Notes under the pieces: generated by a model
Databases searched by the model: none
What the model was told of the DNA's origin: nothing
Seen by the model: the letters and a program-made list of their open reading frames with translations, nothing else
Part shown: one piece after another, positions 26,222-60,113 of the stretch
Layout of the letters: each line of letters starts with the position of its first letter
How positions within the stretch are numbered: position 1 is the stretch's first letter
Source: Candidatus Sumerlaeaceae bacterium
Lineage (GTDB): Bacteria > Sumerlaeota > Sumerlaeia > Sumerlaeales > Sumerlaeaceae
Reading direction: 5' to 3'
Assembly (NCBI GenBank): GCA_051003195.1
Contig: JBPCLP010000047.1
Coordinates: 149,745 to 213,744 of the forward strand
DNA length: 64,000 nucleotides
Made by a program: the position numbers and the translations under genes

Positions 26222-26383
26222 ACTCGTGTAGTGTATCGCGCATCCTGCGCGGTAGAGCAGGCTTCCAGCCTGCTGCGAGAAGAAGACTCAATCAGTCTTA
26301 GAAGCGCCGGGTAAATGACTCGAGCCCTGCGCTACCCAAAGCGGCGGCAAGCCGCGCGCACTCCAAAATCCAGCGCCGAGCCT

Positions 26384-26423
26384 CAATCAAAGCTAATCAA
26401 AGCTAATCAAAACTAATCAAACA
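26384..26423. repeat. Tandem decamer repeat (gctaatcaaa-type, about 4 copies).
   Basis: Direct read: caatcaaagctaatcaaagctaatcaaaactaatcaaaca. Confidence 0.8.
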
Positions 26424-27180
26424 ATTGCGTCTCTCATTGGCATTTCACGCTTTAAATCAAACAGGCCGATGGGGTAATTTCGCCCTTTGATTTCCGTAAT
26501 GTTCAGATCATGTTGCCTCCGGTTCTTTTGTTTTTCGGTCGGGAGGCGTGTGAGGCGAATGCGGATTGCGGATTGCGGAGTTCAAGCCGGAATCGGAATC
26601 GTCGGCGCAAGGATGGCAGGTTGCGTTGCCAGGGTCATCATAATGTCTCCTTCCTGCTTTCAAGTTCAAGTTGGTAATTTCGCCACTTGAATAGCGGTAA
26701 TCCTCGCGTAAGGTTTCGCCGGGCCGAGTGGTCCGCGGGGCTTGCCGGATGGGTGGCTTTTTCCGTCAAGCGCAAAGACATAAAACGCCACGCGGATTGG
26801 GCGCAGACGTGCCCTCTGCCGTCGGTCACGGCGTACGAGGCTGCATAGTTGTCAAAGAACGTGTTCAGCTTAGCTTTACTACGCGGGCAGGTATACACCA
26901 GTTCTGGAGAGCGTGTCACTTCCCTGGCGTCACCTTAGCGTGGGCTAAGTCCAATAAAGTCGAAGAGAGTTTTTTGGGCGAAGGTGCGCTGGTGCGTGCG
27001 GGCAACTTTGGATGAAGGTCCTTGCTCGACGTGCGATAGCGATGAGACCTTCCGTGAGAAAGTTGATCGTCGAGAGTGCGAAGGGGACGGTCGGCCACGT
27101 CCCCGTAACTTCCTACCGCGAACGTTATTCTGTCCCCGTTATTCTACGTGTTGACAATCACGGCGAGACGGTAGAGATAT

Positions 27181-27513
27181 CTAAGTGCGCCTGATCAACA
27201 CGCGCTTTATTCTCATGCAACCTGTAGTTTCTTCAGTAGTGAAAAACGCGTCCGTATACTGAACATTGGCAATCATTAATAGTTCTCCGGGCCTTGGAAT
27301 TACGGGCGAGAGCCTCAACTGCTCATCATTGGCAATCTTAATGCTGTTGCGGATTGATTCAGGCAGAGCTTCCACACATGTACCTTCCACTATGTGTTTT
27401 GCCATCATTTCGTCAATGCTCAAAAAGGAGCGGACATAGTAAGTCCTAACAAACACAGTTATTATGATGCCTAATAGGATCGCGCTTATTAGAAAAAGTA
27501 ATCTGCGTTTCAT
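27181..27513 (-). CDS. Small membrane protein (hypothetical); low-GC gene.
   Basis: 110 aa. N-terminal TM helix (LLFLISAILLGIIITVFV). Local GC is about 42% against about 58% for the window. Confidence 0.45.
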   Translation of the reverse strand: MKRRLLFLISAILLGIIITVFVRTYYVRSFLSIDEMMAKHIVEGTCVEALPESIRNSIKIANDEQLRLSPVIPRPGELLMIANVQYTDAFFTTEETTGCMRIKRVLIRRT

Positions 27514-27587
27514 TTTACAGGCTTTTTTCTTTCGCCTTTATACTTGTTTGCGCAGCAGCTTTCGCACGAACGCTACGCGCGAATCCC

Positions 27588-27678
27588 GTGTGCCGAATCC
27601 GCAGTTCATTACCAGACCAAAGGGTAAACTACCCTCGATTCGGCACACCGAACTGATTACGAACTAACCGTAGATCAG
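27588..27678. repeat. REP-like hairpin element (family 2), copy B.
   Basis: A 10-bp perfect inverted repeat, gtgccgaatc (27590-27599) and gattcggcac (27637-27646). The element is about 85% identical to copy A at 6172-6262. It sits immediately 3' of the coiled-coil gene stop. Confidence 0.8.
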
Positions 27679-27684
27679 ATCTGG

Positions 27685-28587
27685 TCAGTGAAACTGCTCC
27701 AGCTTCTTCGCGATATTCTCCAGCTGGTCAGCTGCTTCGTCCAGGTGCTTGCCCAGCGACTTGATGACTTCGTCTACCTGATCGAGGTCGCCGTTCAGCT
27801 CATTCTGCTGCTGCTTCACCGCGTCCTGGGCCTTTTGAACATCCTCCGCAATTTCGTGTCCTTCGCTTACCAGCTTGTCCACAACCTGCCGGGCTGTCTG
27901 AAGCGCCTCGCCAAATGCGGACTGCGCCTTGGCTGCTGTCTCCTGTAACAGCACGTCCAGCTTGTCCTGCACGGTATTGTCGATCGTATCGATCTCGTCG
28001 CCGAGCTTGCGCGTCTGATCCTCGATCTGCTGCTTCGCCTCTTCGAAAAATGTGTCCAGCTGATGCCCATGCTGCTCCAGCTCGCTCTGGTTGGTCTTCA
28101 GCTCATTGGTCACTTTATCAAAACCCTGCTGCGCCATGGCCATTTCCTGCGCCAGCTTATTTTCCACCTCTTCGGCCTTTGTATCGAGCTCGGCCAGGTC
28201 CTTTTCGGTGTCGTTCAGAACTTCGTCCATCTCGGCAGCGAGCTTCTTCGCTTCGTCGTGGAAGGATTGTACGTCCTGCTCGAGTTGCTCCATCTCGTCC
28301 TCAGCCTTTTTCTGCACCTGTTGGAGGCGGGATTCCAGCTCGTCGAGCATGGTGTCCAGTTCCTTGTGCGCCTCAGTGCGCGCTTCGCGCAGTGCCTCGA
28401 TCTTGTGCTGCAGATCGGTATGCTTTTGATCGAGCTTGTCTGCTTCTTTCTCCATGTCAGCCGCTGCCTGGTCGGCGTCGTTCATCGTATCTTCGAACTT
28501 ATCGTGGGCCTTCTTCAGCTTGACCGTGGTGGCCTCGAGCATAGTTTCCAGTTCATTGCTCAGGTCTACGAGTGTCTCTTCAGCCAT
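27685..28587 (-). CDS. Acidic 11-mer-repeat amphipathic helical protein, paralog 4 (apolipoprotein/LEA-like; hypothetical).
   Basis: 300 aa. Rich in E/D/K/Q/L. No TM segment and no catalytic motif. Hydrophobic residues recur with 11-residue phase when the sequence is stacked in 11-mers. Confidence 0.6.
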   Translation of the reverse strand: MAEETLVDLSNELETMLEATTVKLKKAHDKFEDTMNDADQAAADMEKEADKLDQKHTDLQHKIEALREARTEAHKELDTMLDELESRLQQVQKKAEDEMEQLEQDVQSFHDEAKKLAAEMDEVLNDTEKDLAELDTKAEEVENKLAQEMAMAQQGFDKVTNELKTNQSELEQHGHQLDTFFEEAKQQIEDQTRKLGDEIDTIDNTVQDKLDVLLQETAAKAQSAFGEALQTARQVVDKLVSEGHEIAEDVQKAQDAVKQQQNELNGDLDQVDEVIKSLGKHLDEAADQLENIAKKLEQFH

Positions 28588-28624
28588 GTTGTCTCTCCAG
28601 CTCTAATTCGGTTACGCCGCGCGC

Positions 28625-29476
28625 TCAGCGCCAGTCCACGTTCATTTTACCCACGGTTTCGCGTGCCGATTCCAGGCTGCGCTCCAGTGGCTTCACAACT
28701 TCATCCAGTTCCTTGATGGCCGGCTCCAGCTCGCGCGTCGCATTGTCGAGGTCCCTGGCAAGCTGGTATACTTTATCACCGAAATCCCGCATGGTCTCTT
28801 CGAGTTCGTCCGTCTCCTGGCGCAACTCCTTACGCATACCGTCATGCAGCTCTTTTTCCATCTCCGTAATAAACTCCTGCATCGGGTCCCCGACCGCCTC
28901 ATCAAGCGCCTGCATAAGCCGTCCGCCGAGGTTGTCGGCCGATGCGGAAAGCGATGCCTCGATCTTTCCAATTTCTTCCCGCACGATCTGCTGGGCTTCC
29001 TGCAACTCGGCCTGTAGCAGAGCCACCCCTTTCTCAGCGTGTTCGACAACGTCGTCCGCCGCCTTCTTCAGGTCCTGCATCTCCTGCTGCGCCTCGTTGA
29101 TCGATTGGGAAAGCGAGTGCTTGGTCTGTTCCATCTTTGTGTGCAGCGCGGCAACGCCTTGTTCCACTTGCGTCATCCCGTTGGCGATCGTCTGCTGCCC
29201 CTGGTCCAGCCGGGTCTTCATCGCCTCAAGTGTCTGGCATGTTTCGTGGATGGTCGTCTCGAGGCTCTGCTTTCGCGCGCGCGTCTGGTCGAACAGATTC
29301 TTCAGCGCCAGCGCCATGTCCTCGATGCGTTTCTGGAATTCGTCGCGCTGTTGTTTCTGCTCGGTTGCCAGCCCCTCGAAAAAGCCGGTGACTGTGTCCC
29401 AAAGAGCCTTCGCACCGCTTTCGACAGTGCTGATCACAGTACCTAGTATCTTATCCTGGTCGTCAGACATGACCAT
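28625..29476 (-). CDS. Acidic 11-mer-repeat amphipathic helical protein, paralog 3.
   Basis: 283 aa. Same composition and repeat character as its neighbours. Confidence 0.6.
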   Translation of the reverse strand: MVMSDDQDKILGTVISTVESGAKALWDTVTGFFEGLATEQKQQRDEFQKRIEDMALALKNLFDQTRARKQSLETTIHETCQTLEAMKTRLDQGQQTIANGMTQVEQGVAALHTKMEQTKHSLSQSINEAQQEMQDLKKAADDVVEHAEKGVALLQAELQEAQQIVREEIGKIEASLSASADNLGGRLMQALDEAVGDPMQEFITEMEKELHDGMRKELRQETDELEETMRDFGDKVYQLARDLDNATRELEPAIKELDEVVKPLERSLESARETVGKMNVDWR

Positions 29477-29501
29477 CCTTCCTCATAATCCTGGTGTGTA
29501 A

Positions 29502-30491
29502 TTAATCGCCGTACGAGGCGGCAGCCTGCTGGAATTCCTTCAGCGCGTCCTGCGCACCGCCCAGAAGTTCCATGCTCTTATTCATTTCCTTCGCGGCATC
29601 GACACCGTTGTTCAATGCGTCGATCATCTCATCAAGGCTCTGCTTCAGTTCGCCCAACGGCTTTTTAATGTCGTCGTCGAGACCCTTTTCGATCTCTTCA
29701 AGTTCTGTCTCTTCGAAAAGGTCGGCCAGTTCTTTCATGGATGTATTGGTAAGCTGCGTCAGGCCATCCAGGAAGGCGTCACCATTCTTTTCAAATTCTT
29801 CGAAAGAGTTGTCAAAGCTCTTGGAGCATTTCTCCAGAGCGCCCTCGATCTGCTCTTCGTATTTGTCGTCGAGGCCATCTTCGTATTGCTTCAGTGCGTC
29901 TTTGGCTTTGTCGGCCAGTTCCTCTTCCAGCTTGTCGGCGAGCTTATCGAGAAGATCAGTCACTTCCTGGTGCAGGGTACTCGTCTCTTTGGTTTCGTTG
30001 TCGAGATGCTGGTCCAGTTCGTCGAACTCGGTCTCAGTTTGCTGGCGCAGCTGTTTGCCTTTGTTGATCATCTCCTGCACAGAGGCCAGGAATTTCGTGC
30101 GCTCCTGCTCCAGCTCATCGGCTTCCTCGTTAAGGTCCTGGTCGCCCGCATCCACAGCTTTATCGAATTCCTGCTGCAGCTCTTCTATTTCGCGGTGCAG
30201 ATTCTCAGCGCGATCCCTGGCTTCCTCAATGACGTGCCGCGTCTCATCAACGACAGACGATATCTCGCTGCGGGTCGTGGCGAGGGCGGTTTGCTGGTCC
30301 TCCAGCGTCTGGTCGAAATCGTCATAATCCGACTCGAGTTTTTCGCGCGCTTCTTCGCGCTCCTCGATCTCTTTATCGAGGTACTCCATGTTGGCGTAGA
30401 TCGCTTCGTCCGCTTCTTTCAGATCGTGGAGCAGCTTCTCAAACTTGTCCATGATCTGGTCGTAATACGCCCAGCACTTTTCGATGCTCAT
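29502..30491 (-). CDS. Acidic 11-mer-repeat amphipathic helical protein, paralog 2.
   Basis: 329 aa. Same composition and repeat character as its neighbours. Confidence 0.6.
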   Translation of the reverse strand: MSIEKCWAYYDQIMDKFEKLLHDLKEADEAIYANMEYLDKEIEEREEAREKLESDYDDFDQTLEDQQTALATTRSEISSVVDETRHVIEEARDRAENLHREIEELQQEFDKAVDAGDQDLNEEADELEQERTKFLASVQEMINKGKQLRQQTETEFDELDQHLDNETKETSTLHQEVTDLLDKLADKLEEELADKAKDALKQYEDGLDDKYEEQIEGALEKCSKSFDNSFEEFEKNGDAFLDGLTQLTNTSMKELADLFEETELEEIEKGLDDDIKKPLGELKQSLDEMIDALNNGVDAAKEMNKSMELLGGAQDALKEFQQAAASYGD

Positions 30492-30603
30492 CGTGAGGTC
30501 CTCTGCCCGTCCTGATGTGTTGTTCGACTATATGAAAGTGATTGGCTACTGCATGTAAGAGTTAGCGTACTGCAAAAACCTGTGTTTCGGATACTCCAAC
30601 AAA

Positions 30604-31527
30604 TCAGTCCAGCAGGCCCTCGATCGCTTCGAGGTCTGCTTTCCTGAGTTCTTTCAAGAAATCTCCGAGGTCCTCGCTGCCGCGAGCGACGTCGCCGTGC
30701 AGTTGCTCGATGTCGTTCACGGGACCGCCGGATGTCACCATTTCCCGAACTTCCTCCGCCTTCTTCTCGACCTTCTTGATCGCGTCGGTCACGTCCTGCG
30801 CTGCTTCGGGCAGCTCGTCTTTCGCATATTCGTTAAACCGCTTGATCAGGTCGTTGAGCGCTTCGTCGACGGACTCTTTCAGATTAGTGAGCGCCACATC
30901 CAGTTCCTTATGCAGCTTGTTGTTCGCATCCTCGATCTCGTCGAGCACGCCTTTGACCCCGTCCTTGATATCGTCGTGCATTTCACCGGACGATTTCATG
31001 AGGTCCTGCTGCTTGTCCTCGATCTCCTTCAGCGTATCGTCTACGGCCTTGTGCAGGTCGTCGATTTTCTCGTCGGACTCGGTTAGGTGTTTGCCCATCT
31101 CGGTCACATACTCGTCCGAAAGAGTCTGGAGTTGCTCGAGCTGGTCGCGCAGTTCGTGCAGGTGGCCCGGTATATCGTGCAATTTGCCTTCCAGCGTTTT
31201 TCGAAAACGCGCGACACCTGCGACGATGTCGTTCTCGACTTCGTCCAGCTGGTCGTCGACCTTCTGGATGGCTGCTTTCGCTTCCTCGGTCCGGTCGTGC
31301 AACTCTTCCATCTCGTGGTCGAGGTACTGGTCCATTTCGTCGATGTCCTGGTGCAAATCCTCGAGCCGGTTCTCGATTTTCGCACGCCCGTCGTCGACCA
31401 CCTGGTCAAGATCGACGTTGTGCCTCTTGAAATCTTCCGCGGTCTCGTCGAGCTCTTCGGTATGCTTCCGGACCTCAAGCGCGAGCTCAATCCCCGCTTC
31501 GATCATCTCGCCTAGTGAACTAGACAT
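30604..31527 (-). CDS. Acidic 11-mer-repeat amphipathic helical protein, paralog 1.
   Basis: 307 aa. Same family. Its start overlaps the 3' end of the upstream HExxH gene by 8 nt. Confidence 0.6.
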   Translation of the reverse strand: MSSSLGEMIEAGIELALEVRKHTEELDETAEDFKRHNVDLDQVVDDGRAKIENRLEDLHQDIDEMDQYLDHEMEELHDRTEEAKAAIQKVDDQLDEVENDIVAGVARFRKTLEGKLHDIPGHLHELRDQLEQLQTLSDEYVTEMGKHLTESDEKIDDLHKAVDDTLKEIEDKQQDLMKSSGEMHDDIKDGVKGVLDEIEDANNKLHKELDVALTNLKESVDEALNDLIKRFNEYAKDELPEAAQDVTDAIKKVEKKAEEVREMVTSGGPVNDIEQLHGDVARGSEDLGDFLKELRKADLEAIEGLLD

Positions 31528-32278
31528 GTAAAGTCGCTGAAGGCGCTGAAGTCTTGGCCAAACGACGGTGAGCGGTTACAGTTTTGGTCGAATCGGTTGT
31601 CGTTAGTAGCTTGCGAAGTAAGTGTAAAAAACTGCCTGCATCCGGTGTTTTAACTTCACGTGGACTTGTCTGATCTTTTAAGTATGCTGGCCTCGCTGGG
31701 GTTATTGCCGGTACGCACTCACCTGCGGACTCCTTGAATCCTGCTTGGAATTCAAGCTTGTCGCTCTTGTTAAGTCTATTAAAGCTAGGATGCAATTGCT
31801 GCGCATTCCATGCATCCTTGTGGGTGCAATGATTTTTGTTACTCCAATAAGGATCAAAGCGCAATGCATCATTTCCAGTACGCAGAACTTCTTTTTGAAG
31901 AGGTTTGAACTGCTCTACGTGTTTGTATTCGTGCACTAATACATTCTGCAAGAACGCTACTCGCTCTTCTGGAGACCGCTGATATCCTGTTCGCAAGGCA
32001 TCGGGTCCTACGTAAATTGTGATGTCACAACTACGTTTCGGTTGCCCAAAGCTTTTGTACTCTCTGAGAGGCCCCACACCTGTCACAGCATACGGGAATT
32101 CATCGTCTGTCAGTTTTTCTCGTCTTACAAAATCGCGTCCCTTTAGGTACGGATCATAAATCACTTTTACTCCGTCGGTTGCAAGTCCAGAAAGCTCTAC
32201 CGGACGCTTTGCTGTTTCTAGTGCTGAGATTAAGTTCATGTCAATTTGTTCAACACTGTTATACTTTCTCAGGTCCAT
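31520..32278 (-). CDS. Zincin-like HExxH protein (DUF4157-like putative metallopeptidase); low-GC gene.
   Basis: 252 aa. ITIYVGPDALRTGY...VAFLQNVLVHEYKHVEQ matches, from memory, the DUF4157 HExxHxxQ signature (consensus like LLAHELtHVvQ). GC is about 46%. Confidence 0.5.
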   Translation of the reverse strand: MDLRKYNSVEQIDMNLISALETAKRPVELSGLATDGVKVIYDPYLKGRDFVRREKLTDDEFPYAVTGVGPLREYKSFGQPKRSCDITIYVGPDALRTGYQRSPEERVAFLQNVLVHEYKHVEQFKPLQKEVLRTGNDALRFDPYWSNKNHCTHKDAWNAQQLHPSFNRLNKSDKLEFQAGFKESAGECVPAITPARPAYLKDQTSPREVKTPDAGSFLHLLRKLLTTTDSTKTVTAHRRLAKTSAPSATLHV

Positions 32279-32389
32279 AGCAGTTCCTCGCTTTAAGTAT
32301 CTCTAGCGCCACATTGTACCTTCTTTACCGCCCAGCCAAGAAGGCAACAATTCTCAATACACGCAAAAAGCCACAGGCCGCAGTATACT

Positions 32390-32632
32390 TCAGTTCTGAA
32401 ACGACGCGACCATCGCCCGTTTCCTGACGCCGCTCGCCGATGGGTCGTCGTCCACAACCTGGCAGTCCGCGGTGCGCCACCGGCGCTCCGCGCCGTTCGT
32501 GTCGACTCCGTAAATCTGCCCGTCGGGCCAGATGTTTTCCACACGGATTACGGCACGCAGCCGCGTGTGCATTGCTACATCGCCAGGTTTAAACATGTCG
32601 TCCCTGCCTTCACTGATGGATATGGTGCACAA
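32390..32632 (-). CDS. Small hypothetical protein (possible SH3/Tudor-like fold).
   Basis: 80 aa, MFKPGDVAMHTRLRAVIRVENIWPDGQIYGVDTNGAERRW. Located between the repeat array and the HExxH gene. Coding status is uncertain. Confidence 0.3.
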   Translation of the reverse strand: MCTISISEGRDDMFKPGDVAMHTRLRAVIRVENIWPDGQIYGVDTNGAERRWRTADCQVVDDDPSASGVRKRAMVASFQN

Positions 32633-32786
32633 AGCTGTCTTCGCTTACTGCCCTGGTATCCCGATGTCGGATTGGATGAATCCGTCAGGATTGCTGGATC
32701 AGTAAACCTTTCAGTCGAGCAGCCGTGGGATAGAAATGCAATGCCTTTCTGCACCCCGGTGTGCCGTCCCAGAGATTCGTTATATA

Positions 32787-33163
32787 TTTCGGTTTGCGGC
32801 GCCCCTTCAGGGCGCGAAAAATGGGGTGCTGTAACCCAGGGCCGCGGATTCCAAAAAGCCGTAATCCTTACCCTGGGCTGTGTCCCGCTGCACCTTCGGT
32901 GCAAAAAACCTGAACTGAATTGTGCCGCATATTTTCGGTTTGCGGCGCCCCTTCAGGGCGCGAAAGATGGGGTGCTGTAACCCAGGGCCGCGGATTCCAA
33001 AAAGCCGTAATCCTTACCCTGGGCTTTGTCCCGCTGCACCTTCGGTGCAAAAAACCTGAGGGCTGCGGATTCCAAAGCCGGAATCCTTACCCTGGGCTTT
33101 GTCCCGCTGCACCTTCGGTGCAAAAAACCTGAGGGCTGCGGATTCCAAAAAGCCGGAATCCTG
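32787..33163 (+). repeat. Tandem array of a structured repeat unit (family 1). Composition X(58 nt)-Y(73 nt), linker, X-Y, Y, truncated Y.
   Basis: Direct read. X = tttcggtttgcggcgccccttcagggcgcgaaaRatggggtgctgtaaccca. Y = gggcYgcggattccaaa(a)agccgKaatccttaccctgggctKtgtcccgctgcaccttcggtgcaaaaaacctga. Hairpins include gcaccttcggtgc and cagggccgcggattcc/ggaatccttaccctg. Confidence 0.85.
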
Positions 33164-33171
33164 GAATTAGA

Positions 33172-34926
33172 TTAACCCGCCGATTCGAGTTCTGTCAGCA
33201 CGCGCAGCAGATCGTCCATCTTGTCTTCCATCGCGTTGCGGTCGTCACCCTCTATCAGGCGCTTCAATTCCGCTGCCTGGTTTTTAACTTCCCTGCTCAG
33301 CGGATGCCCGCCGCGGCTGCCCGCCATGCTCTCTGCGCGACCTACGAGATTGCGCGCCTCATCCACCACGCTCTCCTGAATGCGGCTGCGCAGCATGCCG
33401 GTAACGCGTTCCTTCGCATCCTTCACCATCCGCTGCTTCTCGGCATCCGATAGCCGCGTATCCGTCGCTGCGATGGTGATCTTTTTCTCCACGCCAGTGG
33501 CGAGGTCCTCCGCGCGGCATTCAAGGATTCGGTCCGTCGTCAGTTTAAACGTCACTTCCACGCGTGGCACGCCGCGCGGCGCCGGGGTAATGCCCTCAAT
33601 GCGCAGCAGGTCGAGGAAGGTATTCTCGCTGGCCGTCAATTCCTCTCCCTCGTAAATCGGGAAGCTGATCGCCTCCTGGAAATCGCGGGTTGTCGTGAAG
33701 ATATCCTTCGCCTCGGTCGGGTACGTAGAATTGCGCTCAATAATAGGTGCGAACTGGTCGCTCTGCAAGCCGACACCCAGCGAGAACGGCGTCATGTGAA
33801 TGATGACCGGCTTCTCTTTACCATAGCGTGCGGCCAGCGTATCCTGGATATCACCTTCCAGCGGCGCGAGCACCAGGCTCTGCACTGCTGCGCCCATCGC
33901 CACCACTTCTTCCGGTGAGATATCGCGGTTGGGTTGCTTGTTCACCTTGTCGCGCACCACCTTCTGCACCAGTGGAATGCGCGTCGAACCGCCTACGAGC
34001 AGAACCGTATCGATCTTATCCGCCGTCAGATTTGCATCAGAGATCGCCTTCAATAGCGGCTCTACCGTGCGCTGCACGATGTCAGTAATCAATTCGTCAA
34101 ACTTTACGCGAGTAAGCGTGGTGTCCAGCGTCAGCGGGCCCTTGTCCGTCATGGTCACCGCTTCAACAAGGATGTGAGTTTCCTTCACTTCGCTCAGCTC
34201 GATCTTCGCCTCTTCGGCGGCTTCTTTCAAGCGCTGCATGGCAATCGGATCTTCCTTCAGGTCGATCCCGTGCTGTGTCTTAAATTCCTCCAACAGCCAT
34301 TCCATGATGCGTTTATCAATATCGTCGCCGCCGAGGTGTGTGTCGCCCTGGATCGCAAGCACCTGGAACACGCCGGAAATAACCTCGATAATCGAGACGT
34401 CAAACGTTCCGCCGCCGAAGTCGTAAACGAGAAGCACCTGGTCCTTATTTTTATCCAGACCATACGCCAGCGCGGCGGCCGTCGGCTCATCGATGATGCG
34501 CCGCACCTTCAGGCCCGCAATTTCGCCGGCGTCCTTCGTTGCCTGCCGCTGTGCATCCGTGAAGTATGCCGGCACCGTGATAACCGCCTGCACCAGCTCC
34601 TCGCCAAAGTAGTCCTCGGCATCCGTTCTCAGCTTTTGCAGAATTATCGCGGATATTTCCTGCGGCGTGTATTGCTTCCCTTCGATGTTCACACGGTGCT
34701 GCGTCCCCATGTGACGTTTAATCGAGAAGATCGTGCGACCCACGTTCATCACGGCGCCACGCTTTGCCTTTTTACCGACCAGGATCTCGCCACTCTTGGT
34801 GAAACCGACGACCGATGGTGTCAGGCGCTCGCCCAGGCTGTTCGGCACGATCATTGGGCCGTTCTTTTCGAAAACGGCCACCACGGAGTTAGTGGTTCCA
34901 AGGTCAATGCCCATAATTCGGCTCAT
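33172..34926 (-). CDS. Hsp70-family chaperone (DnaK-like, short C-terminal lid).
   Basis: 584 aa. Motifs IDLGTTNS, DLGGGTFD and VLLVGGSTRIP. The substrate-binding beta domain is present. The lid is shorter than in canonical DnaK and there is no GGMP/EEVD-type tail. Confidence 0.85.
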   Translation of the reverse strand: MSRIMGIDLGTTNSVVAVFEKNGPMIVPNSLGERLTPSVVGFTKSGEILVGKKAKRGAVMNVGRTIFSIKRHMGTQHRVNIEGKQYTPQEISAIILQKLRTDAEDYFGEELVQAVITVPAYFTDAQRQATKDAGEIAGLKVRRIIDEPTAAALAYGLDKNKDQVLLVYDFGGGTFDVSIIEVISGVFQVLAIQGDTHLGGDDIDKRIMEWLLEEFKTQHGIDLKEDPIAMQRLKEAAEEAKIELSEVKETHILVEAVTMTDKGPLTLDTTLTRVKFDELITDIVQRTVEPLLKAISDANLTADKIDTVLLVGGSTRIPLVQKVVRDKVNKQPNRDISPEEVVAMGAAVQSLVLAPLEGDIQDTLAARYGKEKPVIIHMTPFSLGVGLQSDQFAPIIERNSTYPTEAKDIFTTTRDFQEAISFPIYEGEELTASENTFLDLLRIEGITPAPRGVPRVEVTFKLTTDRILECRAEDLATGVEKKITIAATDTRLSDAEKQRMVKDAKERVTGMLRSRIQESVVDEARNLVGRAESMAGSRGGHPLSREVKNQAAELKRLIEGDDRNAMEDKMDDLLRVLTELESAG

Positions 34927-34935
34927 GCGAAGCTG

Positions 34936-35466
34936 TTATCTCCTCTCGTTGTATGCTACGACGACTTTTGCATCCCGCAGAAGTTTGCCCCGGAACACAT
35001 ACCCTTTTTGTCTTTCGCTGATCACCGTTTCATTTTCGTGATCGTCAGACGGCCTGTATTCCACCACCTCGTGCAAGTTCAGATCAACTTTGGATCCTAC
35101 AGACTTCAACTGGTAGAGCCCATACGTTTCAAGCAGGCTGAGCAGCCGAAAGTATATGCTCTCAACACTCTTTAGCCAGTTGTCAATGGCTTCGCTCTGC
35201 GGATAACTGCGGGCCAGGTGAAGCACCCGATCGAAGCTGTCCAGTGTCGGCAGCAGACCGCGGATGAGCTTCTCCAAATCGGCAGGCGAAGCGCTCCGCT
35301 GCTGCAGCTCACGGTTGAGATTCTGGAGCTGCTCATTCTCCATGAGAATTTTTGTGGTCAACTGAACCAGGTCCGACGAATCCTCATCCGGCGAAAGGAA
35401 CACCGGCAAGGGCTGCTCGTCGATGACGAATTCGTCAGCCAGCAGATGGCGCAGTAGTGTTCTCAT
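34936..35466 (-). CDS. grpE: GrpE-like nucleotide exchange factor.
   Basis: 176 aa from the ATG at 35464-35466 (MRTLLRHLL...); the ORF track extends it to 35610. Its start overlaps the stop of the upstream J-like gene as ATGA. C-terminal GrpE-like beta region: GYVFRGKLLRDAKVVV. Confidence 0.65.
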   Translation of the reverse strand: MRTLLRHLLADEFVIDEQPLPVFLSPDEDSSDLVQLTTKILMENEQLQNLNRELQQRSASPADLEKLIRGLLPTLDSFDRVLHLARSYPQSEAIDNWLKSVESIYFRLLSLLETYGLYQLKSVGSKVDLNLHEVVEYRPSDDHENETVISERQKGYVFRGKLLRDAKVVVAYNERR

Positions 35467-36752
35467 GCGCGCATCCGGATGTCGGAGATGGCCTTCTTGG
35501 CCAGCTTGTTCTTTGGATCCAGTTCGAGAACCTTCTGGAACTCGGTAAGCGCGTTCCGGCGGTCGCCTTTGCGCAACAGCGTGTCGGCAATTTCGAAATG
35601 GATTTCCCACTGGTTGGGCAGCATCTTCTGCAGTTCCTTGAAGTGCACCAGCGCCTGCGTGTAGTGGCCGCCTTCCTTCAGCTTTTTACCCACTGCAAGC
35701 CGCGCGCGCATCATGCTGTCCTTCAGCATGTGCGCCTTCGGGTCGGCAATCAGCCCGCGGCGCCACGTATTGAATGCCATTTCGAATTTACCGGCGTTCA
35801 GGTACGCCCAGCCCAGTTGGTTCACCACGTCCAGGTTTTTGGGGTGCTGGTTCTGCAGCTTGATAAATGCCTGCACAGCGTCGTCGTACTTCTTCTCCTC
35901 GATCATCGCGCATGCGAGGGAGTATTGCGCTTCGAAGTCCGAAGGGTTGATCTTGAGCACTTCCTTATAGCTCTCGATCGCCTGCTCTTTTGTTTCTTCA
36001 GTCTGCACGCTTTCAAGCGCTTTGGCACCGTGGTGCTTGTGCACCTCCATCAGGCAATTGCGCAGGTACTCGTCGCCCGGGTTCTTCTCCAAATCCTCTT
36101 TCCAGCGCTTTACCAGTTCTCCCCAGTAGCGCTGCGCCCGCTCACGGTCGCCTGCTTTTTCCGAAGTCAGCGCGAGATTGTGGATGATATCCGTGCTGCC
36201 GGGATCCATCTGCAGCGCGTTCTCCCACAGCTTGATCGCCTCGTCATTCAGGTCATGCAGCGCGTAATAATAGCCCAGGTACTGGTAGCTGAAAATGAGA
36301 TTGCTCTTCGCCCGCTGATGGGTGGAATCGAGCTGGAGCACCGCCACCCAGTCATTGATCGCCTCCGTCCACAGCTTCTTCTGCGTATGGTAAAAACTCA
36401 TCCGAAGGTGATTTGCAATCAGCGCAGGTTTGATCGCTGGATTGGGCGTTCCCGCAGTCAGGTGCTGCTCGAGGCCCTTGATGCGCGCCTGGAGATCTGG
36501 GAGCGGCTCCTCTACTTTCTCCTCATCCGACCACGTAAATTCACCCTTCACATAGTTATATGTGAAGACGTCTTCATGGGCGCGTTTCTTCGGGTCACGA
36601 AGTCGCTCATACGCTTTCTGAATGACCATAAAGCGTTCGGTATGCTTTTCCGGGTCATATCGCTTCACCTGCTCCACATACGCTAACTTGATTTCGTGGT
36701 CGTTAGCGCCTTTGCGGAGGTTCAGAATGGTGTAAGCGTTCTGTTCTGCCAT
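35463..36752 (-). CDS. J-like domain protein fused to TPR repeats (Hsp70 co-chaperone-like).
   Basis: 429 aa. N-terminal J-domain-like helix pattern (YTILNLRKGANDHEIKLAYVEQVKRYDPEKH) in which the canonical HPD tripeptide aligns to DPE. At least 8 TPR-like repeats follow. Confidence 0.7.
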   Translation of the reverse strand: MAEQNAYTILNLRKGANDHEIKLAYVEQVKRYDPEKHTERFMVIQKAYERLRDPKKRAHEDVFTYNYVKGEFTWSDEEKVEEPLPDLQARIKGLEQHLTAGTPNPAIKPALIANHLRMSFYHTQKKLWTEAINDWVAVLQLDSTHQRAKSNLIFSYQYLGYYYALHDLNDEAIKLWENALQMDPGSTDIIHNLALTSEKAGDRERAQRYWGELVKRWKEDLEKNPGDEYLRNCLMEVHKHHGAKALESVQTEETKEQAIESYKEVLKINPSDFEAQYSLACAMIEEKKYDDAVQAFIKLQNQHPKNLDVVNQLGWAYLNAGKFEMAFNTWRRGLIADPKAHMLKDSMMRARLAVGKKLKEGGHYTQALVHFKELQKMLPNQWEIHFEIADTLLRKGDRRNALTEFQKVLELDPKNKLAKKAISDIRMRA

Positions 36753-38960: not shown

Positions 38961-39124
38961 CAGGTTTCCGGCTTTTTGGAATCCGCAGCCCACAGGTTTT
39001 TTGCACCGAAGGTGCAGCGGAACACAGCCCAGGGAAAGGAGGCCACGGCTTTTTGTGGTCGACGCAGCCCTGGGTATATCGATCCAATTACATCGCGCCC
39101 TGAAAGCGGCGCCGGAAAGCGCGC
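38961..39124 (-). repeat. Dispersed copy of the family-1 structured repeat (reverse orientation, partly rearranged). It is preceded by a family-2 fragment at 38872-38934.
   Basis: ttttttgcaccgaaggtgcagcggaacacagcccagggaaagga...cgcgccctgaaagcggcgccggaaa matches the reverse complement of the 32787-33163 units. Confidence 0.75.
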
Positions 39125-44814: not shown

Positions 44815-44927
44815 TATGCCGAAGTTCATAGCTATACTTCAGGAAGCTTTCTAGCTCGGACGGCACACAAAACCAGTGAACGAATTAATGCGACAGGACT
44901 CATTAGGTTGCGCATAATTCAGTTCAG

Positions 44928-45054
44928 TTTTTTTGCACCGAAGGTGCAGCGGAACATAGCCCAGGGTCAGGATTCCGGCTTTTTGGAATCCGCAGCCCTG
45001 GGTTTCACCATCCCATTTTTCGCGCCCTGAAGGGGTGCCGGAAACCGAAAATAT
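44928..45054 (-). repeat. Dispersed copy of the family-1 structured repeat (reverse orientation). It is preceded by a family-2 fragment at 44855-44905.
   Basis: tttttttgcaccgaaggtgcagcggaacatagcccagggtcaggattccggctttttggaatccgcagccctgggtttcaccatcccatttttcgcgccctgaaggggtgccggaaaccgaaa is close to the reverse complement of one X-Y unit. Confidence 0.85.
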
Positions 45055-47446: not shown

Positions 47447-50400
47447 TTACTTCAGATTTTGAATCAGCGCACGAGTCCTGCCCTGCTCGGGAACGTTGTT
47501 CTGTTTGCGCGCCGCGTCCAGTGCCAGCGCTGCCGCCACTTTAGCCTTGGCCGGGTCGTTGGTGCGCGCGTGATGCTGCGCCGTCAACCGCAGCAGCCGC
47601 GGGCGCTCCGCCTCGTAGCCGAACAATTGCAGCGAACGCTCCGCCTTTGCCAGCCGCTTGGCCAGCCCGTTCCCCGGCTTTTCAACAATCGCCGCCTCAA
47701 TATCCACCAGCTCCAGCGAGAACATCCGCTCCGCGTCGCCCAGTTCCTCTGCCACCCGGTTGGCCTGCTTTACCAGCTTGCGGCACTCCCCCGGATTATG
47801 CAGGATCAGGTTACTAAGCGCCAGGTTCTCCAGCGCGATGGCAGCGCTGCGGCGGTCCTCGATTTTCTCCGCAATTTCATACGCCGCCGCACTGTGCCTC
47901 ATCGCATCCACTCCATGCTGCTGCGATAAAAACAGGTTCGCAAGGTTCGCATGTGTCGCCGTCAAAACCTGCTGGTACTGTAACCGTTCCGCCAGCGCCA
48001 GTGCCTCACGGTAGTGTTTTTCCGCAGCTTCAGAATTGCCCAGGTTTTCCTCAAGAATTCCAAGGTTCATCACCGTCGCACAAATCAGGAACTTATCGCC
48101 CGTGATCTGCTGGAATCGCAGCGCCTCCCTCAGCAGCCCCGCTGCCTTCTTCAGCTCTCCCGCTTTCCACTCCACCAGCGCAAGGTTGTTGCGCACCGCG
48201 GCGGCGATGCTCGGATGACCCTCGGATAAATCCACCTCCAGCGCCGTTTCGAACAGCTCACGCGCTTTGCCAAAATCACCGCGGCTCCACCAGCAAAGCC
48301 CCAGCCCCTGCACAAGGTCGGCAATCACATCCACATCGCCATGCTTGCGCGCCATCGGCAATGCCGTCTCGAACTCTTTCTGCGCCCGGTCATACTCACC
48401 TGTCATCTGCAGCGCCAGCCCCGCCTCCAGGCGTATGCGGCTCAGCAGCCGGTTATCGCGCGATTTCCCCAGCGCATCCAGCGCCGAGGCCAGGCTTTCC
48501 AGCGCCCGCCGCGGTTCCCCCGACAGCCGCTGCAGTTTCGCCCGCGCGCGCAGGATCGTCGCCACCACCTTGCGATTCTCCGGCGTCGGTGCCAGCCGGT
48601 GCAACCGCTTCAGCGCCTCCTCATAATGCTCCATCGCATCCGGTATCGCACCCATCCCGCTGGCCTGGTCGCCGCTCATTCTCAGGTAAGGTATCGAACG
48701 CGCATCGTCTTCCGCCTGCGTCCAGTGGTACGCCAGCACCGGCGCATAAGGCGCAAGCCGGTCCGCGTATTTCCTCTCCAGCTCCGTCGCGATAAACGTG
48801 TGCAGTTCCCGACGCTGACGCACCAGCAGCGTGCGGTAGCTCACTTCCCGGGTGATATGGTGCAGGAAGAAAAACTCCAGCCCCGTCACGGTAATGTTAT
48901 CGTCCAGCAGTTGCAGCGTCTTCAGCGAATACAGCCGCGCCAGCAATCCCTCCTGGATAAAATTGAAAAACTCGATAAACTCCAGCGAGAACCGCTTGCC
49001 CAGCACCGCCGCGCATTGCAGCACCAGCTTGCGCCGCTCGTCCAGCGAGTCGATCCGCGACTGCAGTATCTCCAGCAGGCTCGGCGGAACCAGTTCGCCC
49101 GCCGACGTGCTCGGGTTTTCCGGGTCGAACTCCGCGTACATCGACGCCGGTTTGATCCCTTCTGCGATCGCCCGCGCCGCATTGCGCGCAAGCTCCATCA
49201 TATAGAACGGGTTGCCAGCCTCCTGGTGAATCAGCCGCTCCCGCACCTCCGGCAAGATATCCTGCAAATCAGCCAGGGCGCCAAACAGCGCCCGCCGACT
49301 TCGCAGGTCCAGCCCCCGCAGCCGCACCCGTTCCAGCGCCCGCATCTGCGCAATGTCCGTGCTCTCCTCATTGCGATACGCCACCATGAAAAACGTCTTC
49401 TTCGGCGGCGACGCCAGCAGCGCGTTCAACGCCTCCGTGCTCGTACGATCGCTCCATTGCAGATCGTCCAGGATCAGCACCAGCGCCGTTGCGCGCCCCG
49501 CTATCCGTTCCAGCAATGCGCGCAGCTCCGTGCGCAACAGCCGTTGCGCCGCCAGCGGCGGAAGCGCCTGGATATTATCCAGCGCCCGCGGATCACCCAG
49601 CATCGCCAGGATCGGCGTCGCATCCACCCGCGAATACCCCAGCCTCTCCAGCGCACGCTCCACCCGCTTCCAGTCACTCTCGCCCGGGTTGCGCGCTGCG
49701 CCCTCCAGCAGCGACGACAGCACACCGCGCCACAGCTCCCACGGAACCTTCGCGCTGTACGGCGCGCCCTCCACATGCCCAATCACCGCGCCCGCCTGCC
49801 GCTGCGCAAACTCCAGCGCCAGCCGCGTCTTGCCAATTCCCGGCTCGCCCTCCAGCACCACCCCGCACACCCGGCGCTCGCTCTCTCCGCCCGACACCCG
49901 CTCATACGTCGCCACGTCGCTGCCGCGGCCATCAAAGCAGCGCACCCACACATCCGTCAGCTTCTGCAGCTCGCGCTCGCGACCCACAAACGGCACCGAG
50001 AAATCCCGACGCTGTGCCTCCGGCCCCCTCGCCGACAGCACCTCGTAAACCATCACCTTCTTCGCGATATTCTTAAACTCGTGCATCCCGGACTTCTTGC
50101 ACTTGAACAGCTCGCGCACGATATCATACGTTTCCGGCCCGATCATAAGCGCGCCCGGTTTCGCCACCCCCTTGATGCGTGCCGCCAGGTTCACCGCGTT
50201 GCCAAATACCTTGTAAATGGGTGGCGTACGCGTCCGAATCACCGAGCTCAGCACGACCCCCGTCTCAATGCCTGCCGACGCCTTCACCCGGTGCCCGTGC
50301 ATTTCCGGCATCGCCTTGATCCGTTCCAGGATCGCCAGCGCCGCGCGCACCGCGCTCTCCGCGTCCCGCTCATACGCCATCGGCGCGCCAAACACCGCAA

Positions 50401-50863
50401 GGCAGCCATCCCCCTGGAACTCCAGGATGAAGCCGTTGAAAAAATCCACCACGTGACCGCAGATCGCGTAATACGCGTCCAGGATTTCCTTCGTCTCCTC
50501 CGGGCGCAGATGCTCGCACAGCCGCGTGTAGCCCACCAGGTCCACAAACACAACCGTCGCGCTGCGGTACTGGTCCTCCCCTCCGCGCAACGCCCGCTCC
50601 AGCCGCGTGCGATGCTGCATCATCAGGATCTCGCCAAGGTCACCCAGACCGCCCGAACCCGGCATCAGCGCCTCGCCGTCCCCCAGCAGGTCCCGCTCCT
50701 CGCGGCTCGCAATACGAGGCAGAGTCTCGTCCACCAGCACCGCACCACAATAGCGGCACAGCTTCGCCTTCTCCTTAATCCACTCCGCGCAGGCCGGGCA
50801 CTCTTTATAACCGGGTTTTTGTTCAGTCATGGCTGAGGTTCCACATTTTAGTAAAGCGCCCAA
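47447..50863 (-). CDS. Multidomain signalling protein: Zn-ribbon, class III adenylate/guanylate cyclase, STAND/AAA ATPase, TPR repeats.
   Basis: 1138 aa. N-terminal CPACAEWIKEKAKLCRYCG. Cyclase core: ATVVFVDLVGYTRL...GDGCLAVFGAP...FGNAVNLAARI. P-loop GEPGIGKTRLA. The C-terminal half contains many TPR-like repeats. Confidence 0.75.
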   Translation of the reverse strand: MGALLKCGTSAMTEQKPGYKECPACAEWIKEKAKLCRYCGAVLVDETLPRIASREERDLLGDGEALMPGSGGLGDLGEILMMQHRTRLERALRGGEDQYRSATVVFVDLVGYTRLCEHLRPEETKEILDAYYAICGHVVDFFNGFILEFQGDGCLAVFGAPMAYERDAESAVRAALAILERIKAMPEMHGHRVKASAGIETGVVLSSVIRTRTPPIYKVFGNAVNLAARIKGVAKPGALMIGPETYDIVRELFKCKKSGMHEFKNIAKKVMVYEVLSARGPEAQRRDFSVPFVGRERELQKLTDVWVRCFDGRGSDVATYERVSGGESERRVCGVVLEGEPGIGKTRLALEFAQRQAGAVIGHVEGAPYSAKVPWELWRGVLSSLLEGAARNPGESDWKRVERALERLGYSRVDATPILAMLGDPRALDNIQALPPLAAQRLLRTELRALLERIAGRATALVLILDDLQWSDRTSTEALNALLASPPKKTFFMVAYRNEESTDIAQMRALERVRLRGLDLRSRRALFGALADLQDILPEVRERLIHQEAGNPFYMMELARNAARAIAEGIKPASMYAEFDPENPSTSAGELVPPSLLEILQSRIDSLDERRKLVLQCAAVLGKRFSLEFIEFFNFIQEGLLARLYSLKTLQLLDDNITVTGLEFFFLHHITREVSYRTLLVRQRRELHTFIATELERKYADRLAPYAPVLAYHWTQAEDDARSIPYLRMSGDQASGMGAIPDAMEHYEEALKRLHRLAPTPENRKVVATILRARAKLQRLSGEPRRALESLASALDALGKSRDNRLLSRIRLEAGLALQMTGEYDRAQKEFETALPMARKHGDVDVIADLVQGLGLCWWSRGDFGKARELFETALEVDLSEGHPSIAAAVRNNLALVEWKAGELKKAAGLLREALRFQQITGDKFLICATVMNLGILEENLGNSEAAEKHYREALALAERLQYQQVLTATHANLANLFLSQQHGVDAMRHSAAAYEIAEKIEDRRSAAIALENLALSNLILHNPGECRKLVKQANRVAEELGDAERMFSLELVDIEAAIVEKPGNGLAKRLAKAERSLQLFGYEAERPRLLRLTAQHHARTNDPAKAKVAAALALDAARKQNNVPEQGRTRALIQNLK

Positions 50864-56396: not shown

Positions 56397-56960
56397 GTGA
56401 AGAGTTTTTGCCTCTCCCTAGTCCTCCTTTCTGCAACGATTCCGGTTCTAGGGCAAACAGCTGCTGTTTTATGCACCGATCCGGACGCATGTGATCCCGT
56501 GTCCGGATTCACTTTTTCATGGACCAATAACGTTGCCCATAGTGGCCATACAGGAGGGATCATCAACACCAGTGATGCCAGTTCGCCACTGGCGGTTCAT
56601 GCTTATAATACAGCAACGGGATACGGATGCATTTCCTGGGATAGTACTGGTCACGTCCTTAGAATCACCGATTGTGCCGGAACAGACACCGACATTATGG
56701 TCCATGAAAATGGAAGCGATAATGACTGCTGGTACTATGACATCGTCAATGGCCACATCAGGGGAAGGTATAGTTCGGACTGTCTGAATATTGATCGCTG
56801 TCCGGCACAGCCGTATGACTGCGAACCGTGTGCATCTGTCTGCAATCCTTGCGCTAATCCATACTGGGAGTTCAGTAATGGGTCTGCGAGACAATACAGG
56901 CAATATTCTAAAAAACGCTCACCTGTTACTCGTGTTGCAAAAAAGCCAAAAAGCCGTTAG
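56397..56960 (+). CDS. Secreted Cys-rich protein (hypothetical; possible beta-trefoil/lectin-like); low-GC gene.
   Basis: 187 aa. Signal peptide present, 14 Cys, and three C...xW-type segments (SWTNN, ISWDSTG, CWYYD). Local GC is about 48%. Confidence 0.45.
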   Translation: MKSFCLSLVLLSATIPVLGQTAAVLCTDPDACDPVSGFTFSWTNNVAHSGHTGGIINTSDASSPLAVHAYNTATGYGCISWDSTGHVLRITDCAGTDTDIMVHENGSDNDCWYYDIVNGHIRGRYSSDCLNIDRCPAQPYDCEPCASVCNPCANPYWEFSNGSARQYRQYSKKRSPVTRVAKKPKSR

Positions 56961-58206: not shown

Positions 58207-59676
58207 CTAAAGCCTGTGACCACTTGTTGCCATCATTTCAGAGGACGGCAGTCCGAGGAGATCAATAAGGATTTCGTCCTTTCCGATTTCGATCTTATCC
58301 GTAATGGCTTCAATGATTTTCCGTTTGTCCTCATGCTCCAGCGTCGGCCAGCGGGTATATAAGTCCGCCGCTTCGTAGGCGACCTGGTCACTGGAGAGCA
58401 GGTTGACTTTGAGGTAGTCTAACTCGCCCTCCAAACGGGGTATCTGCTCATCCAGTTCGCGGTAGCGGGTTTCCAGCGGGCCGTAACGTGCGGCAAAACC
58501 TTCCTCACTTATGTGGTGGCCGATGTAGAGTTTGTAGGTTCGATCCATCTCGGCAGACAGCTTTTCTTGTTGGGCCTGGAGGGCGGCTAGCTGCTCCTGC
58601 TTGTCGGTGATGGCCTGCTCGGATTGCAGCAGGTATGCCTTTATGTCCGCAGATGAGAGAGCAAAGTTCTTAAGCTGTTCGTAAAAGATGCCTTCGAGAT
58701 CTATGATTGGGATCTTGTTCCGGCATACCTGGCATACGTATTTTGGCGTATTCGAGGGCACGTACATTTTGCCCCCACAGGTGCAGACGGTCACCCCGGC
58801 AAAAAGGTGCACCGGTCGCCGCGCCGGTACCTTCTTGTTACCACCCTGTTCCAGCAGAATGTGCTGGACCCGGCTCCAAAGCTCTTCGGAAAGGATCGGT
58901 TCGACCTTGCTATAGATCCACTCGCTTTCCGGTTTAATGACCTTCTTGCCTTCGGTGAGCGTCGAGTAGTTCGCCCGGTAGAGCCCTTTGGGGGTTGTAT
59001 CCCGTAACAGCCGGTCAATTCCGGTATGCTCAAACAGCTTGCCGGCGCGGGTCCGATGCCCCGCGTCATTGAGTAGATCCGCGACGGTACTCTTGCGCTT
59101 GTGCTCAACAAACAGTTCGAAGATGAGCTTACGAATGGGCGCTTCTCTGGAGTTCGGCACCATCTTGTTGTCCACCCACTGATAGCCAAAGGGCGCTTCA
59201 CTGCCAAGCCGCTTTCCGAGCTTGGCACGGATAGGGACCGATGCTCTGATACGGTCCGCGATTTCTTCGCGCTCCCAGGTCGCCATGGCAGCAATGACTG
59301 TATAAAAAAAGCGGCCAATTGGCGAGGACGTATCGATAGATTCCTGAAGCGACACCAAATGAGCACCGTGCGTCTCAAACAGTTCCGCAAATTCCAGAAG
59401 TTCCTTCGTATTTCGGGCCAGCCGGGCGAGTTTTGAGAACAAGAGTCCCTGGATGTGCCCACGTTTGACGTCGGCAAGCATCCGTTGGGTCTCTTTCTCA
59501 GCGATCACCGACTTGCCGCTGACGCCTTCCAGGTGGTAGACCTCGACCACCTGCCATTCCTTGATTTCGGCATACTGGCGAGCGCGTCGCTCGTGGTGCT
59601 CGGGACTGTCACCCTTGGCCTGGTCTTCGGTTGAGACCCGAATCCAGATGCCGACACGTTTGGTTGATTCTACCAT
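58207..59676 (-). mobile_element. Large serine recombinase (resolvase/invertase catalytic domain plus recombinase domain plus zinc ribbon/coiled-coil).
   Basis: 489 aa. N-terminal catalytic domain VGIWIRVSTEDQ...LARLARN (Ser nucleophile context). Long C-terminal domain with a Cys cluster (CTCGGKMYV...CQVCRNK) and a coiled coil, typical of phage or ICE integrases of the serine family. Confidence 0.8.
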
Positions 59677-59775
59677 CTTGTTACTGTCACTCCAAAACAG
59701 GCGATACGTCCTAAGGTTCTACGCAGATCACGTCCTGTCATTTACAAACCAAACGCACTTTGTTAGAATTCGCCT

Positions 59776-60003
59776 ATGAACGATCTATCCAAGCAACTGC
59801 ACGATTTCGAGCAACGCCAAACAGCGTTGATCGAGACGGTCGCACAACGTCTCGACCTACTGGCCGATGATACGCGCGATCTTAAGCGTGATGTTCGATC
59901 CATTTTGCAGATGGAAGCCGGCAATACCCGTGACCTTGTGCTGTTGACCCACCGAGTCGAAGCGATCGAACGCGAAGTCGGTATTCGACCCGCTCAGGCA
60001 TAA
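59776..60003 (+). CDS. Small coiled-coil hypothetical protein.
   Basis: 75 aa. Sits between the recombinase and the ATPase gene. No motif recognised. Confidence 0.3.
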   Translation: MNDLSKQLHDFEQRQTALIETVAQRLDLLADDTRDLKRDVRSILQMEAGNTRDLVLLTHRVEAIEREVGIRPAQA

Positions 60004-60113
60004 CGAGACACCCTCTAACGTGGGGCGGGCCCGCGCCCGGCAGTGCTCATTAAGCAATAGCACGCTGGGAAAACGCCTCCCGCCCGTAAGGTCAACTGGC
60101 GAGTCGATCTCTT

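Follow-up and report, generated by a model that had tools for sequence, protein, structure and literature searches.

Comparisons with bacterial coiled-coil-rich or intermediate filament (IF)-like proteins are based on crescentin, Ccrp of Helicobacter and FilP/Scy of Streptomyces, and an N-terminal transmembrane (TM) segment is typical of the YtxH/DUF948 general stress proteins. Another described case is the Sll1862/Sll1863 pair of Synechocystis (family NF052504), two helical proteins of unknown function that are abundant, induced by general stress and encoded by adjacent genes (PMC8670252). The locus considered here lies in a Candidatus Sumerlaeaceae metagenome-assembled genome, within a window of 64,000 nucleotides (contig JBPCLP010000047.1, positions 149,745 to 213,744), and consists of six co-directional minus-strand open reading frames (ORFs) with short spacing (Table 1). 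An initial annotation had described these ORFs as an operon composed of a DUF4157-like zincin with an HExxH motif, four paralogous helical proteins built of 11-residue repeats (here P1 to P4) and a small membrane protein (M110). The six ORFs are present at the coordinates first given, and the arrangement indeed cannot be assigned to a characterised system, as searches of the Pfam, NCBIfam, PADLOC and PHROGs profile libraries and of PDB sequences provided no assignment for the cluster. However, the four genes P1-P4 alone form the real unit. Their products are cytoplasmic, hyper-acidic and amphipathic, essentially all-alpha, and matched in length. Our favoured reading, proposed tentatively, sees P1-P4 as native and well-expressed helical proteins of the cytoplasm that form rods, probably co-assemble and are specific to this lineage, a function predicted from their sequences.

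The four proteins are strongly acidic, with D+E accounting for 20-29% of the residues (29% in P1) and K+R for 11-12%, which gives net charges of -24 to -60 (e.g., -50 in P1, -60 in P2 and -24 in P3). Proline makes up 0-1% of the chains (0-3 residues per protein, none in P4) and glycine only 2-5%. None contains a TM segment, the maximum 19-residue Kyte-Doolittle (KD) mean being 0.04-0.78, and their sequences show no hydrophobic leader at the N-terminus. Hydrophobic residues represent 24-28% of each chain, and about 80% of them are located within +/-60 degrees of the hydrophobic centre of the helix. The amphipathic periodicity is pronounced: the whole-protein hydropathy Fourier peak of all four lies at a period of 3.54-3.58, with little power at 3.667, and its power of 150-338 is 3-8 times that of the best shuffle (shuffle maximum about 45). 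The strongest signal is that of P4, with a power of 338 at 3.58 and an average shuffle maximum of 44. Hydropathy autocorrelation peaks at lags 7, 11, 18, 25, 29, 36 and 43, with values of 0.33-0.38 at lag 7 and 0.26-0.35 at lag 11, only 0.07-0.16 at lag 22 and about zero at lag 33. Hydrophobic spacings are mostly 3, 4 and 7, with 3-4 alternation exceeding 4-4. Measured in sliding windows, the period is 3.52-3.60 over the N-terminal ~150 residues, except for windows 1 and 2 of P3 (3.65 and 3.60), and in all four proteins a later segment starting around residue 133-177 shifts to a local period of 3.65-3.78. P1-P4 thus share a two-part design in which ~150 heptad-like N-terminal residues are followed by a hendecad-like or longer period. 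The acidic, amphipathic, TM-free and all-helical character originally attributed to these proteins, and the statement that they are not canonical heptad coiled coils, are therefore correct. Of the 11-residue phase, a strong amphipathic period and the lag-11 peak hold, but the position of the Fourier peak and the weak signals at lags 22 and 33 do not fit; together with the N-to-C shift, they indicate a heptad/hendecad mixture and not an 11-mer array.

The single-sequence AlphaFold2 (AF2) model of P1 is all-helical, with helices at residues 5-176, 183-265 and 273-306 (predicted local distance difference test score, pLDDT, 64; predicted template modelling score, pTM, 0.27), and Foldseek produced no matches with this model. 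Long uninterrupted coiled-coil-type periodicity extends over most of each chain of P1-P4. In the proposed model, each chain would form a long helical bundle or coiled coil whose N-terminal helix protrudes and whose C-terminal part folds back as a bundle, and narrow hydrophobic seams would join the four chains into rods, either homo- or hetero-oligomeric. The dense negative surface would favour cations or basic partners over anionic membranes, and the proteins would act as lineage-specific coiled-coil-rich structural or scaffold proteins. The rod model is supported by an amphipathic periodicity far above that of shuffles and by the N-to-C period shift common to all four proteins. Several points weigh against it. 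The tertiary confidence of the P1 model is low (pTM 0.27), and chains with net charges between -24 and -60 would resist self-association unless counter-ions or partners were present. As an alternative, P1-P4 could be disordered until bound to a partner. Moreover, the cluster is found in one genome only, and functional statements thus have no comparative support; and because common descent cannot be demonstrated at the residue level, the shared architecture could be convergent.

This last point concerns the earlier description of P1-P4 as clear paralogs, which was not borne out. BLASTP identity between them is 20-25%, with several high-scoring segment pairs out of register. Smith-Waterman scores lie 6-9 standard deviations over plain shuffles, but scores against reversed partners equal the real ones (136-181 versus 120-169), the best ungapped diagonals do not exceed those of reversed controls, and no consistent collinearity was detected. 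Against shuffles that preserve the hydrophobic pattern, the similarity excess is weak (z 1.4-3.2). Similar size, neighbouring genes and a common periodicity profile make paralogy plausible, although residue-level similarity does not show duplication. The case is also cautionary, in that similarity among low-complexity helical proteins disappeared under a reversed-sequence control.

Codon usage separates the four-gene array from the ORFs on either side. The GC content at third codon positions (GC3) of P1-P4 is 0.68-0.75 and their effective number of codons (ENC) 41-48 (GC3 0.75 and ENC 46.9 for P1, 0.68 and 41.4 for P2, GC3 0.73 for P3 and ENC 44.7 for P4); these ENC values are similar to those of DnaK, LeuRS and DnaJ-TPR (39-41). 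In P4, AAG reaches a fraction of 0.90 and CTG+CTC of 0.94. Composition shifts abruptly at both ends of the block, the flanking ORFs showing GC3 values of 0.40 and 0.48 and ENC values of 58-60, and a coherent six-gene operon is not supported. The codon usage of P1-P4 is thus native and fairly strongly biased, while the HExxH and M110 ORFs look foreign, and the best reading is that these are two unrelated ORFans flanking the array. The distances between the six ORFs, from the HExxH gene to M110, are -8, 112, 25, 37 and 171 nt. The 8-nt overlap between the HExxH gene and P1 hinges on an uncertain P1 start: ATG 31527 has no Shine-Dalgarno (SD) sequence before it, and an independent gene caller begins P1 at Met8, in which case the overlap vanishes. 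SD sequences precede P2, P3 and P4. At the other end, the 171-nt gap that divides P4 from M110 contains a strong hairpin: the fold of 27540-27689 on the minus strand has -59.3 kcal/mol (z -3.95), and none of 200 shuffles was equally stable. This hairpin is a possible 3' end of the P transcript, although its role as terminator is presumptive because a U-tract is absent after it. Scans for sigma-70 promoters and intrinsic terminators gave results no better than shuffles, and no att-like flanking repeats marking an inserted island were found.

Table 1. Features of the P1-P4 locus and its immediate surroundings (positions within the window)
Feature	Position	Strand	Remarks
HExxH protein ORF	31520-32278	-	252 aa; SD GAGGA at -12..-8
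P1, acidic all-helical protein	30604-31527	-	307 aa (300 aa from Met8, ATG 31506)
P2, acidic helical protein	29502-30491	-	329 aa; SD AGAGGA upstream
P3, acidic helical protein	28625-29476	-	283 aa; NCBI-annotated as 281 aa, ACR2IE_17855
P4, acidic helical protein	27685-28587	-	300 aa; SD GGAGAG
M110, ORF with N-terminal TM segment	27181-27513	-	110 aa; doubtful gene, doubtful member
Strong RNA hairpin directly 3' of P4	27582-27654	-	12-bp perfect stem GUGUGCCGAAUC/GAUUCGGCACAC
68-aa ORF (MFKPGDVAMHTRLRAVIRVENIWPDG...)	32390-32596	-	Native GC3 0.75, SD-like site; gene call by Logan pipeline
Tandem 73/146-nt hairpin-rich repeats, three in tandem after dnaK-like stop	32782-33162		Fold z -3.85

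M110 does carry the membrane segment first described (residues 4-22, KD 2.68). Its GC3 is 0.48-0.49 and its ENC 58.1, it has a poor SD sequence and no family match, and, whereas P3 has an NCBI accession, M110 was found only under a Logan source and has none. The HExxH ORF is probably a real gene, judging from its good SD sequence, a codon-position asymmetry (p=0.002) that stems from codons 1-140, and the absence of an open frame of 252 codons in 2000 shuffles of its DNA. Its GC3 of 0.40 is the lowest among the window ORFs of at least 150 aa, and its ENC of 59.8 means that it is essentially without codon bias. The motif VHEYKHVEQ is present as stated (residues 115-123), with HEYKH at residues 116-120. 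Resemblance to DUF4157 (PF13699) and other minimal zincins consists of an HExxH with Q at +3 (HEYKHVEQ) and preceding hydrophobic residues, but the chance expectation of HExxH in a protein of this composition is 0.015 per protein. The DUF4157-like zincin assignment was not upheld, as neither DUF4157 nor any other peptidase profile matched the protein at E<=10, no third zinc ligand is identifiable, and no family, PDB or fold match was obtained. In two protein searches, including one of 1.84 billion representative proteins, its sole match was itself, and viral, plasmid and phage searches returned nothing. The AF2 model (pLDDT 44) has a low-confidence order of helix, three strands and then helices around the motif, where residues 116-121 score below 50, so that the helix at the motif is itself of low confidence.

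These data bear on two explanations in which the HExxH protein is functionally linked to P1-P4. A module of a protease plus a polymer would agree with the hydrophobic context of the motif (VLVHEYKHV) and with a low-confidence secondary structure that loosely fits a zincin N-terminal subdomain. We nevertheless consider it improbable, given the lack of profile and fold matches, the chance expectation of the motif, the hairpin between P4 and M110, and the fact that the HExxH protein has no homologs with which co-occurrence could be established. In fact, because the “zinc protease” is identified by a five-residue motif alone, the cluster is a curiosity and not a recognisable new system. The second explanation, a toxin-plus-decoy module, draws on the only Pfam line obtained for the HExxH protein at E<=10, a marginal HepT/HEPN-like match at residues 76-122 (12.6-14.2 bits, E 0.04-0.12) in which QNVLVHEY resembles RNxxxHxY, and on the extreme acidity of the downstream proteins. 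However, this match is below the 23.5-bit cut-off of PF01934, the Rx4-6H site reads QNVLVH with glutamine replacing the HEPN arginine, and no secretion or delivery domain was found, all of which make a toxin very hard to credit. Nor do P1-P4 qualify as members of the ClyA-family tripartite alpha-pore-forming toxins (Hbl/Nhe/Mak/Xax), as they have neither a hydrophobic head or tongue (19-residue KD mean <0.8) nor a leader, and HblA, MakB, MakE and XaxA profiles score 12-18 bits against cut-offs of 125-690.

No relatives of P1-P4 were detected in the collections searched. P3 forms a cluster of one member, its sole match among 5.8 billion clustered proteins being itself, and metagenome DNA scans with P4 and with P2 revealed no relatives. 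A 15-billion-protein collection lacks P1, P2 and P4 as exact sequences but contains their neighbours, which means that protein-level searches may under-sample this class. Conserved co-occurrence of homologs was likewise not found; homologs never co-occur because, in the databases searched, no homologs exist. At the profile level, only one score from all libraries exceeds a curated cut-off, that of P1 on ApoLp-III (PF07464; 38.1 versus 36.3 bits), while P3, P4 and P2 reach 32.4, 27.2 and 26.6 bits, respectively. Because this match falls into 2-4 separate pieces and stands alongside dozens of coiled-coil matches that are just as weak, compositional inflation is likely. The nearest misses are sll1863_fam (31.8 versus 35 bits) and LA_3659_fam (34.1 versus 36 bits). 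PDB sequence searches retrieved only designed bundles and generic coiled coils (E>0.01). SMC/Rad50 profiles match through coiled-coil arms only (15-34 bits against cut-offs of 567-1087) and no P-loop domain was matched; the SMC, Rad50, ZorA tail, tape-measure protein and JetC matches were dismissed as compositional. Also dropped were a PspA/Vipp1/ESCRT-III relationship with Hsp70 remodelling, PF04012 being outside the top matches, and a ferritin-like or metal-binding ExxH function, as P1 contains 4.2% His but the pattern is inconsistent across the P proteins.

The ApoLp-III match of P1 is the main argument for a lipid-droplet, granule or membrane coat made of surface-active helices like those of exchangeable apolipoproteins, perilipins or phasins, together with weak Apolipoprotein A1/A4/E matches in all four proteins and a hydrophobic fraction and face width like those of an apoA-I control. 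However, apart from that match, the apolipoprotein, LEA (late embryogenesis abundant), perilipin or phasin signature of the initial annotation fails at the profile level: PF01442 gives 38.5, 31.0, 27.4 and 32.2 bits for P1, P2, P3 and P4, respectively, against a cut-off of 90, Perilipin (PF03036) 18.9 against 33 for P1, and Phasin (PF05597) 16.5 against 28.8 for P4, while group-3 LEA (PF02987) and synuclein are outside the 25 best Pfam matches of every P protein, lists that reach E 0.008-0.14. Charge segregation is also absent, as K/R and D/E lie at mean angles of 115-117 and 116-126 degrees from the hydrophobic centre, respectively. In the apoA-I control these are 97 and 135 degrees, and the shared angular sector of both charges in P1-P4 thus argues against class-A lipid-binding helices. 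Proline-punctuated 11/22-mers are missing, chains carrying between -24 and -60 net charges are expected to bind poorly to anionic bacterial lipids, and no polyhydroxyalkanoate or lipid-storage genes are located nearby. We therefore attach very little weight to a coat function.

A somewhat better case, albeit still an unlikely one, can be made for stress-protectant hydrophilins, i.e., abundant, conditionally folded amphipathic proteins that would protect membranes or other proteins, or act as a buffer for ions and water, under stress from salt, heat or desiccation, with group-3 LEA proteins, YtxH/DUF948 general stress proteins and the Sll1862/Sll1863 pair as analogues. P1 comes near the NF052504 threshold (31.8 versus 35 bits, model positions 3-90 of 93; P3 scores 16.5), weak YtxH, DUF948 and ApoLp-III matches occur in all four proteins, the codon bias of P1-P4 is compatible with high expression, and the cluster adjoins an Hsp70 triad. 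However, the stress-profile scores are under curated cut-offs and inflated by composition, glycine is scarce, the autocorrelations at 22 and 33 expected of an 11-mer repeat are weak, and the Hsp70 adjacency is absent from nine related loci.

The triad is located upstream of the cluster on the same strand (33172-36752) and comprises a J-domain/TPR protein of 429 aa, GrpE and an Hsp70 of 584 aa. In its longest form, the GrpE ORF runs ~148 nt into the J-protein gene, and the true GrpE start is thus probably further downstream. A genome scan with the J-domain/TPR protein identified ten Sumerlaeota loci, nine of which (L002-L004 and L006-L011) extend to GrpE, DnaK and ~7.6 kb downstream. All nine keep the DnaJ-TPR/GrpE/DnaK order, with a DnaK identity of 70-82%, and J-domain+TPR/GrpE/short Hsp70 seems to be a specialised Hsp70 unit, or the only one, across the phylum. 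Over the same extent, the nine loci contain none of the cluster genes, no acidic low-proline ORF comparable to P1-P4 on the coding strand, and no DNA similar to 26222-33171. The three ORFs that passed the composition filter (in L006 and L011) either lie antisense to dnaK or precede the triad, and the closest relative (DnaK 82% identical) has polA downstream of the triad in place of the cluster. The cluster does lie downstream of the triad, but since nine loci hold the triad without it, the proposed Hsp70 link is positional only. A lone HExxH motif and an Hsp70 neighbour on the same strand hinted at a “system” that comparative and compositional evidence does not bear out.

Between dnaK and the cluster are ~0.9 kb with hairpin repeats of 73/146 nt, whose perfect hairpins are GGATTCC/GGAATCC, TGCACC/GGTGCA and GCGCCCC/GGGGCGC. 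This intergenic repeat family is dispersed, with more copies at 38993-39017 and 44925-44991 (both on the minus strand), and has no Rfam match; it looks REP- (repetitive extragenic palindromic) or MITE- (miniature inverted-repeat transposable element) like and seems to form a REP-like boundary at the cluster. The 68-aa ORF has no Pfam match and no relatives in the related loci. Downstream of M110, between it and the convergent leuS, ~960 bp (26222-27180) contain no convincing gene, tRNA or Rfam match, and include a 10-bp tandem repeat, AATCAAAGCT x3.7, at 26385-26421. Elsewhere in the window, the gene at 47447-50863 (-), whose 1138-aa product combines adenylate/guanylate cyclase, AAA_16 and TPR domains, lies in the most GC-rich stretch (GC 0.64, GC skew -0.23) and shows the strongest codon bias of all (ENC 35.5, GC3 0.78). 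A 187-aa ORF at 56397-56960 (+) with a signal-peptide-like N-terminus, GC3 of 0.45 and no Pfam match is a second compositional outlier. At the right end of the window, ~26 kb from the cluster, a large serine recombinase (Resolvase + Recombinase) adjoins a protein of 1078 aa that contains a coupling-protein domain of the TrwB type (58207-63350, -), which may represent an integrated mobile element.

In all, P1-P4 belong among the coiled-coil-rich helical proteins and match no known family. With ApoLp-III and the apolipoproteins A1/A4/E they share an all-helical, amphipathic nature, a hydrophobic fraction of ~0.28 and a similar face width; however, they are about twice as long as the PF07464 profile (146 positions), P2-P4 remain under its cut-off, and they differ from PF01442 proteins in their repeat pattern, lack of class-A charge segregation and large net negative charge. 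As in Sll1862/Sll1863, the proteins are helical, encoded by adjacent genes and of unknown function, and the P1 match spans almost the whole 93-position NF052504 model, but the P proteins are about three times the length of that model, are encoded by four genes and score under its cut-off. They also differ from YtxH/DUF948 proteins in having no N-terminal TM segment. No sequence or profile relationship to crescentin, Ccrp or FilP/Scy was detected, and the P proteins are far more acidic than coiled-coil-rich and IF-like proteins and have no 51-residue repeat, filament formation being hypothetical. The likeness to this group lies in a length of ~300 aa, an almost entirely helical structure, genes that are sometimes adjacent, and a heptad-type N-terminal segment followed by a non-heptad segment containing hendecads. 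If rods or filaments are indeed what P1-P4 form, they would extend the few bacterial cytoskeleton-like or scaffold proteins by a hyper-acidic, lineage-specific coiled-coil type from a candidate phylum on which no experimental cell-biology data were found.

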